This document shows, piece by piece, positions 6,037-20,717 of a stretch of 32,000 nucleotides of DNA. The notes under the pieces were generated by a model. The model was not told the DNA's origin, ran no database searches, and saw nothing but the letters and a program-made list of their open reading frames with translations. The DNA lies in NCBI GenBank assembly GCA_019056805.1, contig DXJG01000002.1, positions 223,103-255,102 on the forward strand. The letters are read 5' to 3'. How positions within the stretch are numbered: the first letter of the stretch is position 1; every line of letters starts with the position of its first letter. Made by a program: the position numbers and the translations under genes. This stretch comes from Candidatus Baldrarchaeota archaeon (GTDB lineage: Archaea; Asgardarchaeota; Baldrarchaeia; Baldrarchaeales; DXJG01).

Positions 6037-6191
6037 ATTTTCTTAGTCTTCTTTTCTAATTTTATCTACTCATATTGTTATTTATTTTCATTAGATTTAT
6101 CAAGAAAACTGCATCTACTTAAGATTGGCTAAAATTTAAAAACATGTAAAAATTTTATTCAACAGTAATCGTTAATCCAAAGGTGTCCCAA

Positions 6192-6509
6192 TTGGTGAAA
6201 GTTAAAGTAAAACTTTTCGCTTCCTTCAGAGAATTGATAGGCACAGGGATTGTTATCCTAAATAAATCTCAAGAACTAACAGTATTAGATGTAATAAAAG
6301 AAATCTCTAAACAATATAACCCTAATTTCGAAAAAGAAATTTTAAAAAATTCAAAAGAATTAAAACCTTACGTAAAAATCCTCGTTAATGGTAGATCCAT
6401 TGAATTTCTTAACGGTCTAAATACAAAATTAAAGAATGAAGACACCGTGGCAATATTTCCACCGGTTGGAGGCGGTTCACAGAGAAATTATTTACAAAAT
6501 TCAACATAA
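6192..6509 (+). CDS. MoaD/ThiS/SAMP-family ubiquitin-like protein with a 10-aa extension after the GGG motif
   Basis: VKVKLFA.FRE, ILVNG, L...D.VAIFPPVGGG beta-grasp pattern, then SQRNYLQNST before the stop. TTG 6192 lies 6 nt after GGTG. Confidence 0.9.
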   Translation: MVKVKVKLFASFRELIGTGIVILNKSQELTVLDVIKEISKQYNPNFEKEILKNSKELKPYVKILVNGRSIEFLNGLNTKLKNEDTVAIFPPVGGGSQRNYLQNST

Positions 6510-17164: not shown

Positions 17165-18919
17165 TTGAAATATACAAAAATTGTAGAATTCTACGAAAAA
17201 ATTGAACAAACAACCAAAAGACTTGAAATGACAGATTACCTTGTAAGACTTTTTAAGGAAACACCTAAAGAAATAATTGATAAAGTAGTTTATTTAACAC
17301 AAGGGAAAATATATCCCGATTTTGTTGAACTTGAACTTGGCGTGGCCGAAAAAATGGCCATGAGAGCGATAGCAAACGCCACAGGAGCAACAATAAAGGA
17401 CATAGAAGAAGATTTTAGAAAAACCGGAGACCTAGGTTTAACTGCTGAAAACTTCATTAAAAAGAAAAGACAACTAACTCTTTTTGCAAAACCCCTGACG
17501 GTTGATCACGTTTATAACGTTTTTGATAAGATAGCAAAAGCTACGGGTGAAGGATCCCAAGACTTAAAAATTAGACTACTTTCCGGTTTACTCACTAATG
17601 CACAACCTAAGGAAGGCAAATATATAATTAGAACAGTTACTGGTAGATTAAGACTCGGTATAGCAGATATGACCATACTGGACGCATTAGCAATAGCTTT
17701 TACTGGTAGTAAAGAAAATAGACCTGTACTCGAGAGAGCATATAATCTTTGCAGCGACTTAGGTGAAGTCGCGAAAACAGTTGCTGAAAAAGGGCTTGAA
17801 GGAGTAAAACAATTCGAAATCAGAGTGGGAAGACCCATAAGACCCATGTTAGCTCAAAGATTATCAACTCCTGAAGAAATTCTAGAAAAACTTAGTGGAA
17901 AAGCAGCTTGTGAGTGGAAATTTGACGGGGAAAGAGTACAAATACATAAAGATGGAAGCAATGTACAACTTTTTTCAAGAAGACTTGAAAACATTACAGA
18001 ACAGTATCCAGATGTACAAGACTATGTGAGAAAACATATTAAACCAAATGAAGTCATTGTTGAGGGAGAAATAGTAGCAATTGACCCAGAAACAGAAGAA
18101 ATGCTCCCATTTCAAGAATTAATGCATAGAAGAAGAAAATATGAAATAGAAAAAGCAATAGAAATGTACCCGGTTAATGTATACCTTTTTGATATACTGT
18201 ATGTAGATGGAGAAGATCTTACAACAAAACCATATACAGAAAGACGAAACCGCCTTAAAGAAATTGTAGAAGAAAACAACATAAAAATAGCACCAGCAAT
18301 CATTACCGACGATATCAAGGAAATAGAAAAATTCTTCGAAGAGGCTATAGAAAACGGATGTGAGGGATTAGTACTTAAATCAGTTAAATCAGACAGTATA
18401 TATCAAGCAGGAGCAAGAGGATGGCTTTGGATAAAACTAAAACGTAGCTATCAATCAAAGATGGTTGAACCCATAGACGTCGTTATAGTAGGAGCATTTG
18501 CAGGCAAAGGAAAACGAGCAGGAACATACGGCGCTTTACTCGTAGCAGCATATAACAAAGAAAAAGATGTATTCGAAACGATATGTAAAGTTGGAAGCGG
18601 ATTTACAGACGAAGATCTAGAAAATCTACCAAAAATTCTAGAAAAATATAAAGTAGAACATCGGCATCCTAGAGTTATATCAAAATTAGAACCTGATTTC
18701 TGGTTTGTTCCAGCTAAGGTCATTGAGATAATTGGCGATGAACTTACTCTTTCACCGGTCCATACATGTGCATGGGGAGTAATTAAAGAGGAGACAGGAA
18801 TAGCTGTTAGGTTTCCACGATTTACTGGTAGATGGAGAGACGATAAAGCCCCAGAAGATGCAACAACAACACAAGAAATCATACAGATGTATAAAGCTCA
18901 GCTTAAAACAATTTCATAA
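17165..18919 (+). CDS. lig: ATP-dependent DNA ligase (archaeal Lig1 type)
   Basis: PMLAQR, motif I EWKFDGER (adenylated Lys), EGE, FDILY, EGLV.K, WIK.K, OB domain, RFPRF; RBS GGAGG. Confidence 0.97.
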   Translation: MKYTKIVEFYEKIEQTTKRLEMTDYLVRLFKETPKEIIDKVVYLTQGKIYPDFVELELGVAEKMAMRAIANATGATIKDIEEDFRKTGDLGLTAENFIKKKRQLTLFAKPLTVDHVYNVFDKIAKATGEGSQDLKIRLLSGLLTNAQPKEGKYIIRTVTGRLRLGIADMTILDALAIAFTGSKENRPVLERAYNLCSDLGEVAKTVAEKGLEGVKQFEIRVGRPIRPMLAQRLSTPEEILEKLSGKAACEWKFDGERVQIHKDGSNVQLFSRRLENITEQYPDVQDYVRKHIKPNEVIVEGEIVAIDPETEEMLPFQELMHRRRKYEIEKAIEMYPVNVYLFDILYVDGEDLTTKPYTERRNRLKEIVEENNIKIAPAIITDDIKEIEKFFEEAIENGCEGLVLKSVKSDSIYQAGARGWLWIKLKRSYQSKMVEPIDVVIVGAFAGKGKRAGTYGALLVAAYNKEKDVFETICKVGSGFTDEDLENLPKILEKYKVEHRHPRVISKLEPDFWFVPAKVIEIIGDELTLSPVHTCAWGVIKEETGIAVRFPRFTGRWRDDKAPEDATTTQEIIQMYKAQLKTIS

Positions 18920-18979: not shown

Positions 18980-19030
18980 TTAGAGTGGAAATGGTGCATC
19001 TCCTGGTCCAACAGGTCCTCCTGGAGGCAT
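18980..19030 (-). CDS. Putative 16-aa Pro/Gly-rich microprotein MPPGGPVGPGDAPFPL
   Basis: Minus strand reads GGTGA-ATAAA-ATG CCT CCA GGA GGA CCT GTT GGA CCA GGA GAT GCA CCA TTT CCA CTC TAA. RBS spacing matches most genes in the window. TATA upstream, T-tract downstream, GC-rich island in AT-rich intergenic DNA. Confidence 0.6.
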   Translation of the reverse strand: MPPGGPVGPGDAPFPL

Positions 19031-19061
19031 TTTATTCACCATTAAAGAATTTAAAAGAAAG

Positions 19062-19149: not shown

Positions 19150-19164
19150 AAGCAAATTTATAAA
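19150..19164 (+). promoter_or_regulatory. Candidate BRE-TATA promoter of the zinc-finger microprotein
   Basis: AAGCAAA-TTTATAAA; predicts a start site near 19187. Confidence 0.5.
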
Positions 19165-19220
19165 AGTAGTAGCATTTAAACATCTTACTTTAGCATGGTG
19201 CTCAAAAAGCATTCAGCGAG

Positions 19221-19331
19221 GTGGTGCTCATACCGAGAATTAGACGTTGCCCATACTGTGGTAAGAATCTTGAAAACTTCTGGGTAGAAATCAGGAAAAA
19301 ACACATAGAGCAGTGCAAGAAATCCAAGTAA
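19221..19331 (+). CDS. Putative 33-36-aa CCHC zinc-finger microprotein
   Basis: (V)VLIPRIRRCPYCGKNLENFWVEIRKKHIEQCKKSK*; C-x2-C-x14-H-x3-C. GAGGTG at 19218-19223. Start is uncertain (GTG 19221, GTG 19224 or ATA 19230). Confidence 0.65.
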   Translation: MVLIPRIRRCPYCGKNLENFWVEIRKKHIEQCKKSK

Positions 19332-19472
19332 TTATTTGTTCATACAAACATTTTTAAACAACCTCTACAAAAGAAAACGTCATCAATATATTGTTATGAT
19401 AGATATAACAAATTAATAAAATAACTTATTTGTCACCAATCCTTAATTAAATGATTAATACGAGGAATGAAC

Positions 19473-20717
19473 ATGAAAAAAATCCGATCATATACCCTTT
19501 CATTAGTTGCACTATATGTAGCAACGTTTTTATTAAGATCATCTTTTTCTGCTACTCTTCTAGTATTTGGAAGGTATTTAAATGTCATTGGAAAAGATCC
19601 CCTAGAGATAGCAATCATAGACATATCATATTCAATCAGTGAAATGCTCACAGCCGCATACTTTGGAGTACTGTCAGACAAAATAGGCCGCAAACCTGTC
19701 ATGCTTTATGGTACATTACTTGCAGGCATGACCGTTGCAATAATACCCATCTCAAATTCAACCATATGGTTATTAACAATACATGCAATAGTAGGATTAG
19801 GTGCTGCAGCAAAAGTAAGTTCCACTCTCGCACTAATATCCGATTGTGCTCCGCCAGATCAAAGAGGAAGATTAATGGGCTTTTATGACTACTCAACAAT
19901 ATCAGGATACATAGCAGGCTTCCTATACGGCGGCTTCTTCTACGACTTTTTTGATGTAAGCAACAATCTATCAAACATAATCTACTGTTTCCTTTCCATC
20001 TCAGCACCACTTTTCATAGCAGCAATAACAATTTTACTTCTGGTAGTCGAATATGGAACCAGAAGAGAAAGAGCGGAAATAGAATCAATATCATCAATAA
20101 AAGATCTTAAACTTGTTTGGCAAAACGAGAAATTAAGAAATCTTCTCCCCTTATGGCTTTGTATCACAACATTATTTGGTATGGCATCAACCTTCGGACC
20201 CGTAATATCCGAAGAAGCTGGTGTAAGCGGTCTTCAAACAGGTCTCTTATTCGCTGCAGCAGGCACAGCCTTTGGACTTTTACAACCAATTTGGGGCCAC
20301 ATATCAGACAAAATTGGAAGAGTAAAAGTCCTGATCATAGGCGTACTAAGTTTAACAGGACTAATAACTCTAATACCTATAACACTCATAGCATTTCCAA
20401 ACATAAGAAGCCTAATGGACATACCACTGCCCATACTTGCATTAATCGGAATACTAGTAGTAGGTGTAGGTGCATTACCACCTGCAGCTCTTGCATCTGT
20501 TGTTGATGAAACCCCAGAGGACAAACGTGGACCAGTAATGGGAGTATATAGCATGATGTTAGGCCTCGGAGACACACTAGGAGGACTTGTAGGAGGCTTT
20601 TTCGTAAAAGCACTTGGCTGGATAGGACTAATATACTTCGCTGCTTTACTCGTCGCTATAGCAATGATTTCAACATCTAAGTATGCTATCAAATCCCTTA
20701 TTCACAAAATCAAATAG
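19473..20717 (+). CDS. Major facilitator superfamily transporter
   Basis: About 12 hydrophobic segments; MFS motif A twice (GVLSDKIGRK, GHISDKIGRVK); P.DQRGR.MG and P.DKRG.VMG. Start ATG 19467 or 19473. Confidence 0.93.
   Translation: MKKIRSYTLSLVALYVATFLLRSSFSATLLVFGRYLNVIGKDPLEIAIIDISYSISEMLTAAYFGVLSDKIGRKPVMLYGTLLAGMTVAIIPISNSTIWLLTIHAIVGLGAAAKVSSTLALISDCAPPDQRGRLMGFYDYSTISGYIAGFLYGGFFYDFFDVSNNLSNIIYCFLSISAPLFIAAITILLLVVEYGTRRERAEIESISSIKDLKLVWQNEKLRNLLPLWLCITTLFGMASTFGPVISEEAGVSGLQTGLLFAAAGTAFGLLQPIWGHISDKIGRVKVLIIGVLSLTGLITLIPITLIAFPNIRSLMDIPLPILALIGILVVGVGALPPAALASVVDETPEDKRGPVMGVYSMMLGLGDTLGGLVGGFFVKALGWIGLIYFAALLVAIAMISTSKYAIKSLIHKIK

Follow-up and report, generated by a model that had tools for sequence, protein, structure and literature searches.

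A frame at positions 19221-19331 of the window (the whole 32,000-nucleotide stretch analysed here, from Candidatus Baldrarchaeota archaeon) raises two questions: whether so short a frame encodes a protein at all and, if it does, what the single CCHC finger that it spells would bind. A preliminary description, made from the sequence letters, had proposed a minimal finger for ubiquitin, a ubiquitin-like protein (Ubl) or nucleic acid in an Asgard-like host. The host is indeed an Asgard archaeon (Baldrarchaeia), and the frame, the ligand pattern C-x2-C-x14-H-x3-C, the BRE-TATA box and the GAGGTG motif that had been listed were all recovered in place (Table 1). The microprotein is best read as a lineage-specific, previously unannotated family among the archaeal small CPxCG-type zinc-finger proteins, with a UBZ-like architecture. 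As to its function, we put at roughly 50% the probability that it is a small finger which binds nucleic acid or an acidic partner in the manner of the CPxCG type, and is not a canonical ubiquitin reader.

The frame, its signals and its conservation

The frame lies in the interval between the genes for an ATP-dependent DNA ligase (17165-18919) and an MFS transporter (19467-20717). Its product would have 36 aa if read from GTG 19221, 35 aa from GTG 19224 and 33 aa from an invariant ATA at 19230; residues are numbered here from GTG 19224. Under this numbering the ligand pattern is C9-P-Y-C12-G...H27-I-E-Q-C31, i.e., CPYCG-x13-HIEQC. To judge from the archaeal consensus, the GCAAATTTATAAAAG box would act as the promoter; an analogous box (TTTTAAAT / CTTTAAAAT) is found 50-55 nt upstream in the second genus of the order, at a distance similar to that of GCAAATTTATAAAAG, and the Shine-Dalgarno-like site there is GGAGGTG or GGGGGTG.

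Table 1. Positions of the microprotein gene, its zinc-ligand motifs and its putative expression signals in the window
Feature	Position	Strand	Details
BRE/TATA-like box GCAAATTTATAAAAG, putative promoter	19152..19166	+	identical in 5/5 same-genus sequences; flanking intergenic DNA diverged
Box TTTAACA(T/C)CTT.CTT, likely transcription start region (putative TSS)	19175..19191	+	conserved in same-genus sequences L001-L004; ~25 nt 3' of the TATA box
Shine-Dalgarno-like GAGGTG	19218..19223	+	in 5/5 same-genus sequences
Zinc-finger microprotein frame	19221..19331	+	GTG start, 36 codons; from the letters and the ORF list
Coding sequence from second GTG	19224..19331	+	35 aa; stop TAA 19329-19331
Zinc knuckle C9-P-Y-C12, beta-hairpin	19248..19259	+	invariant in 7/7 sequences; residues 8 and 15 are bridge partners in the model
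Helix ligands H27...C31 (H-x3-C)	19302..19316	+	invariant in 7/7 sequences; within predicted helix 21-34
T-rich run TTATTTGTT, likely archaeal oligo-T terminator (putative)	19332..19340	+	directly 3' of the stop; T-rich runs there in 5/5 same-genus sequences

Among 41 related genomes searched in six frames, all three of the same genus have this frame at 85-89% identity, each time again between the ligase and the MFS gene, and the other genus of the order has an orthologue at 57-59% identity with different neighbours. Each of the five Baldrarchaeia genomes of the collection (the class total there) carries one copy. Scans of 185,579 species genomes and of the JGI metagenomes added two more distinct sequences and no orthologue outside the Baldrarchaeia lineage, while among 400 Asgard genomes nothing outside Baldrarchaeia scored better than E about 4e-5. 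The search for homologues suggested in the preliminary description therefore yields seven distinct orthologues, all from Baldrarchaeia. In their alignment (A2) 19 of 35 positions are invariant at identities down to 57%: 15 residues and the four putative ligands C9, C12, H27 and C31, whose conservation the earlier proposal had presupposed and which are unchanged in 7/7 sequences.

Substitutions counted by codon position were 3/0/16 between L001 and L002 (p=1e-5), 0/1/8 between L003 and L004, and 5/1/15 between L005 and L060 (p=6e-4), the last pair being from the second genus. An overlapping frame from ATG 19195, which had been named as the competitor, lacks its ATG and is closed by stops in 4/4 other same-genus sequences, which favours the zinc-finger frame. 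As for an RNA element, the locus has no Rfam match and its RNA fold (z = +0.99) is nothing unusual. Together, the invariant ligands, the third-position substitutions, the closure of the rival frame and the absence of an RNA signal argue for a real coding gene; on these sequence comparisons, the frame is taken to be a protein-coding gene under purifying selection.

A word-indexed search of 5.8 billion predicted proteins with the 45-aa stop-to-stop query returned no candidate, so the microprotein has never been called by gene finders. Searches of Pfam with the window protein and five members returned sub-threshold knuckle matches only, and a search of the ESM Atlas unnamed micro-protein clusters only. 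The microprotein thereby adds a well-supported, never-annotated gene to Asgard genomes; this is a gain in annotation, and nothing in it overturns current views.

Gene context was considered as a guide to function and set aside, since the neighbours differ between the two genera: in one they are the DNA ligase, a divergent Pro/Gly micro-gene of 16-20 codons and the MFS transporter; the other genus has a NAD kinase-MarR fusion and a DHOD-B-like Fe-S protein instead. The Pro/Gly-rich frame (18983-19045 of the window, minus strand) is itself conserved and runs divergently from the zinc-finger gene; it has 20 codons (16 from its second ATG), the species differ in it by synonymous changes, and a TATA-like box lies about 25 nt ahead of it.

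Predicted fold and sequence relatives

AlphaFold2 with alignment A2 predicted that a short hairpin surrounds the CPYCG knuckle and that residues 21-34 form a helix (mean pLDDT 80.5). A Foldseek search of the PDB placed the FAAP20 UBZ (3wwq) first (E 0.65) and the TAX1BP1 UBZ third (E 4.3), both non-significant. In a VIA-align search of 48,161 representative chains the FAAP20 UBZ 2muq was again the top match (Z 3.1), followed by the MOZ CCHC finger (2.8), TAX1BP1 UBZ2 (2.7), the NDP52 UBZ (2.4), classical C2H2 fingers (2.2-2.4) and the RAD18 UBZ (2.1), the top scores of UBZ, MOZ CCHC and classical C2H2 fingers being statistically tied. When the Foldseek list was realigned, 3wwq_F gave Z 4.1 with an rmsd of 1.4 A over 32 residues at 25% identity. 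The helix ligands H27 and C31 of the model superpose on the FAAP20 helix that carries H166 and C170 (numbering from PMC4267625). With Foldseek E of at least 0.65 and VIA Z of at most 4.1, UBZ and other beta-beta-alpha fingers are inseparable by score; the microprotein is thus predicted to be a beta-beta-alpha CCHC finger to which the UBZ subclass is nearest, at scores too low to set it apart from other such fingers. As a predicted autonomous fold it is among the smallest, for the whole protein is one beta-beta-alpha C2HC finger.

The spacing of the ligands points the same way. The C-x2-C...H-x3-C spacer is x14 in the microprotein and in the Pol kappa UBZ, x11 in RAD18 and x15 in the FAAP20 UBZ (PMC4267625). 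The UBZ-like ligand spacing noted in the preliminary description was thereby borne out by the spacer shared with Pol kappa; with the closeness of the predicted fold to FAAP20, a UBZ-like architecture of the microprotein is supported at the level of these models.

Profile comparisons, which had been suggested as a check, were less decisive. No Pfam UBZ model (zf-WRNIP1_ubi PF18279, zf_UBZ PF18439) matched any of five members at E<=10; as controls, however, a human RAD18 UBZ fragment scored 22.7 bits on zf-WRNIP1_ubi, below the cut-off of 26.4, and both Pol kappa UBZs matched no UBZ model in Pfam, so this test has little power. A sequence-profile search of the PDB found no UBZ, and CPxCG knuckles only (LysW, Rpo12, L24e, aS34, Nop10).

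Three known finger families were tried and rejected: i) the classical C2H2 finger (PF00096), as the fourth ligand is Cys in all members and no match appeared at E<=10; ii) zf-C2HC_2 (PF13913), which reached only E = 3.5 in three of five members, at a cut-off of 27 bits; and iii) the C4 zinc ribbon of two CxxC knuckles (Rpo12, L24e, LysW-like), as each member has three Cys and the matches span the first knuckle only.

A HMMER search of 1.84 billion representative proteins returned eight matches: two from a triple-finger family (P0001, E 2e-8; P0006, E 5e-4), five plain repeated knuckles or membrane proteins, and one Zn_ribbon_TFIIB protein (P0005). The E of 2e-8 for P0001 adds up over three repeats that score about 15 bits apiece, and matches of similar E are plain repeated knuckles. 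The best PDB sequence matches of P0001 are the RAD18 UBZ (E 0.044) and the Pol kappa UBZs, and P0006 lies nearest a eukaryotic Atlas cluster, 50% of which carries zf_UBZ. The links that lead from the microprotein through P0001/P0006 to the RAD18 and Pol kappa UBZs are weak, if suggestive.

The triple-finger proteins (P0001 and P0006, with P0010-P0016) form a metagenomic family of about 200 aa with three tandem C-x2-C-x14-H-x3-C fingers. P0001 and P0006 (209-223 aa) have the ligand spacing of the microprotein, each finger aligns with it gap-free at 37-39% identity, and the motifs C-P-x-C-G-x-N-(L/I) and K-H-I-x-x-C are common to both. Unlike the microprotein, they have three fingers, acidic or neutral, and a further, unrelated region at the C-terminus; all the Atlas clusters nearest to them are eukaryotic, and the score per finger is too low to prove homology.

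Within the phylum, the best matches outside the class (E 4e-5 to 1e-2) belong to a family of 83-100-aa proteins that begin with a CPYCG C2H2 finger and end in a conserved helical domain, examples being L006:1480-1728, L007:1480-1728, L008:1357-1608 (-), L009:1441-1731 and L079:348-611. The family is widespread in one large Asgard family, where most of the matches in 80 of 135 genomes fall on open frames of this size; no Pfam family scored above its cut-off on them, zf-Di19 being the best lead. As in the microprotein, the CPYCG knuckle of these proteins leads into (F/Y)-W and a His-bearing helix, but their ligands are C, C, H(W+2) and H(W+7), a C2H2 set in another register, and they have an extra domain of 50 aa.

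Asgard NYN RNases of the Zc3h12a type (L010:1096-1617 (-), L011:1468-1989 (+) and L076:284-874 (-)) carry an N-terminal C-x2-C-x11-H-x3-C finger, which is fused to the RNase, whereas the microprotein has x14 and stands alone. The two fingers share (I/V)-P-(R/K)-x-x-R-CPYCG-(K/R), an H-V-x-x-C-R-R end and basic flanks; they are only weakly similar (E about 4e-3 to 9e-3 per genome), with a 3-residue indel between them. On Pfam zf-C2HC_2 the RNase finger scores 22.5 bits, compared with only E 3.5 for the microprotein family.

In another Asgard genus, membrane proteins with an N-terminal C4 zinc ribbon (L072:323-784, L074:283-804, L075:278-1222 and L077:301-1242, all on the minus strand) have a second knuckle and helix (C-G-x-x-V-V-S-F-W-x-E-x-N-K-K-H or C-G-E-N-L-E...K-x-K-H-L) that closely resemble residues 12-28 of the microprotein. 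This likeness may reflect a shared knuckle-plus-helix module, or convergence.

Candidate roles of the basic finger

The family is strongly basic: its pI is 9.6-10.2 and its net charge +5 to +8, with 9-12 Lys and Arg against 3-4 Asp and Glu, and R5, R7, R8, R24 and K26 are invariant in the seven sequences. This invariant basic surface and the net charge favour binding to nucleic acid or to an acidic partner, and the nucleic-acid-binding finger that the preliminary description had given as its other option is a candidate that fits the charge better than ubiquitin binding does.

Small archaeal proteins of such a kind are known. The CPxCG class comprises proteins of fewer than 100 aa with one CPxCG motif and, 7-40 residues away, a second Cys/His pair with 2-3 residues between its members; CPxCG-related proteins make up about 8% of small archaeal proteins, interaction with DNA or RNA has been proposed for them, and one of the class, Brz of Halobacterium salinarum, regulates transcription (PMC2253796). 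The microprotein has 33-36 aa, CPYCG at residues 9-13 and H27-x3-C31 14 residues past C12. Like it, the CPxCG small zinc-finger proteins (Tarasov et al. 2008, PMC2253796) are archaeal and often missed by annotation; the class is one of motif and not a homologous family, and most of its members have 50-70 aa. The microprotein has no detectable homology to Brz, and the beta-beta-alpha C2HC geometry and the length of 33-36 aa are specific to its own family.

We therefore propose the following scheme. An independently transcribed micro-gene restricted to Baldrarchaeia would yield a product of 33-36 residues, in which one zinc ion would be held by C9 and C12 of the beta-hairpin knuckle and by H27 and C31 of the C-terminal helix. 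The product would be a stand-alone beta-beta-alpha C2HC finger with the architecture of eukaryotic UBZ4 fingers, and would expose an invariant basic surface made of the arm P4-R5-x-R7-R8, of R24 and K26 on the helix and of a Lys/Arg-rich tail. This surface may serve as a module that binds RNA, DNA or an acidic partner, as has been proposed for archaeal CPxCG proteins such as Brz. We infer the zinc binding, the target and a regulatory or structural role from the features described above.

That the nearest same-phylum CCHC finger sits on an NYN RNase, i.e., in an RNA context, counts for the nucleic-acid reading. Several points speak against it: a positive charge by itself says little about binding to nucleic acid, the fingers that match best in structure bind ubiquitin and not DNA, and the C2HC finger of RAD18 was shown not to bind DNA (PMC2034485).

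A different role for the same basic protein would be that of a lineage-specific small subunit of a large machine (ribosome, RNA polymerase, replisome or chromatin), with the zinc finger only a staple that stabilises the fold. Many small zinc proteins of archaeal ribosomes and RNAP have zinc fingers of this staple type. All genomes of the class have the gene, in a single copy, its promoter and Shine-Dalgarno site are strong and conserved, its product is tiny and very basic, and the PDB sequence matches are Rpo12, L24e, aS34 and Nop10, all of which would suit such a subunit. Those matches, however, span the CPxCG knuckle alone, and the families concerned lack a C2HC beta-beta-alpha finger; moreover the microprotein is limited to one class, although subunits of core machines are usually more widespread, and its gene lies in no ribosomal or RNAP gene cluster. 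We consider this role unlikely.

It is slightly less likely still that the microprotein reads ubiquitin, or a ThiS/Urm1-type Ubl, as a UBZ4-like finger that stands alone, in which case its helix would dock on the hydrophobic patch of Baldrarchaeal ubiquitin; such a microprotein might possibly act as a free adaptor or competitor in the Asgard ubiquitin pathway, perhaps near DNA repair. UBZ4 fingers (FAAP20, RAD18, WRNIP1 and Pol kappa; 3WWQ, 2MUQ, 2MRF, 5VF0) are, like the microprotein, beta-beta-alpha folds with Cys-Cys-His-Cys ligands in the pattern C-x2-C-x(11-15)-H-x3-C. Several lines of evidence would fit the idea: i) the ligand pattern and spacing are those of UBZ4 fingers; ii) the FAAP20 UBZ tops three structure comparisons; iii) hydrophobic-core positions are common to both, those of FAAP20 (C1-3, fingertip, C2+4, C2+8 and H+1) being all hydrophobic and conserved in the microprotein; iv) H-(I/V)-E-x-C of one genus resembles HLDSC of RAD18; v) the best full-length matches, the triple-finger proteins, are nearest the RAD18 and Pol kappa UBZs; vi) an operon of ubiquitin and E2 is present in 5/5 Baldrarchaeia genomes, whose ubiquitin has a C-terminal GG and a V/K/Q-L-E-D stretch like the I44 region; and vii) a DNA ligase gene adjoins the microprotein gene in one genus.

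The contact residues speak against it. In the FAAP20 UBZ, whose ligands are C147/C150/H166/C170, the helix residues D164, A168 and L171 are needed for ubiquitin binding, and A168Y abolishes it (PMC4267625). With the ligands aligned, these D(-4)-A(0)-L(+3) contacts map to K/Q25, E/L29 and K/R32 of the microprotein. Position H+2, which is Asp in HLDSC of RAD18, is Glu in five sequences and Leu in two, split by genus, and thus varies where most of this highly conserved protein does not. The charge differs as well: the RAD18 and Pol kappa UBZ pieces are acidic (pI 4.8-6.0), unlike the microprotein, and Baldrarchaeal ubiquitin has Arg and Lys around its hydrophobic patch, as in eukaryotes. The earlier proposal of a ubiquitin-binding finger is not supported by these comparisons.

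Nor do the remaining data link the microprotein to a ubiquitin system. UBZ4 fingers are modules of large DNA-repair proteins, whereas the microprotein is a whole protein and archaeal, and no direct sequence-profile match connects it to any PDB UBZ; the one low E among its relatives, 2e-8, is a sum over three fingers of a kind that plain repeated knuckles reach alike. The ubiquitin and E2 operon is on another contig than the microprotein gene, and the ligase adjacency holds in one genus only, with the divergent micro-gene in between. Ubiquitin systems are common across Asgard lineages, yet the family is found in Baldrarchaeia only. Thus the contact positions, the basic charge and the unlinked operon leave a ubiquitin-reader function of the microprotein unsupported on present sequence data, and a free-standing archaeal UBZ4-type reader of ubiquitin (or Ubl) working in the Baldrarchaeal ubiquitin/E2 system is improbable. 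If it were true, the microprotein would be the first UBZ from a prokaryote and a candidate forerunner of those fingers by which the proteins of eukaryotic DNA-damage tolerance bind ubiquitin, and Asgard archaea would possess a module with which eukaryotes read ubiquitin signals; our search of the literature found no paper linking UBZ fingers to Asgard or other archaea.

Two loci for ubiquitin-like proteins were recorded. On contig 17 of G000 (167832-169801; L064, L071) a eukaryote-like ubiquitin gene (168296-168499, minus strand) adjoins an E2 (UQ_con) gene, with a second UQ_con-like gene near; all five Baldrarchaeia genomes show this arrangement. In the window, a ThiS/MoaD/Urm1-type protein (PF02597, 4e-15) is encoded at 6183-6509 (+) and followed by a HAD hydrolase gene. 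The Ubl that the preliminary description placed in the window is this gene, of the ThiS/Urm1 type and not ubiquitin; it lies 13 kb away and was set aside as a link to the microprotein.

Start codon and translation

The exact start codon is uncertain. Among the same-genus sequences the codon aligned with 19224 is ATG in two species (G001/G002) and GTG in three, and GAGGTG abuts this ATG or GTG at a spacing of ~0-2 nt, while other genes of the window have GGTG or GGAGG 5-10 nt ahead of the start. The invariant ATA (19230-19232) of the window's genus lies 6 nt past GAGGTG, which is the usual Shine-Dalgarno distance. Depending on the start, a product of 33-36 aa would result in the first genus; that of the second would have about 39 aa.

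In the second genus (L005/L052/L061 and L060) the stretch from the upstream stop to Cys9 contains none of the codons ATG, GTG and TTG in frame, and the frame still bears the coding signature seen between L005 and L060. The lack of a canonical start together with this third-position bias calls for a near-cognate start; as far as the sequences tell, translation must begin from a near-cognate codon at least in the Baldrarchaeum yapensis clade. Orthologues which lack a canonical start and yet show selection at the protein level offer a natural case for near-cognate (AUC/AUA) initiation in archaea.

The missing canonical start, the unusual first-genus spacing and the silence of gene callers would also suit a frame that is no functional protein, either a regulatory upstream ORF or leader of which the translation and not the product matters, or a frame left untranslated; this is scarcely credible given the third-position bias in both genera (5/1/15 in the second), 19/35 invariant residues with all four ligands, a promoter and T-rich tail of its own, and a downstream gene which differs between the genera, so that the frame is not the leader of one particular gene.

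At the putative start of the Baldrarchaeum yapensis clade (L005:1480-1520 and L060:1180-1215), a spacer of 4 nt separates the full Shine-Dalgarno site GGAGGTG or GGGGGTG from ATC, which in L060 stands directly behind a TAA stop.
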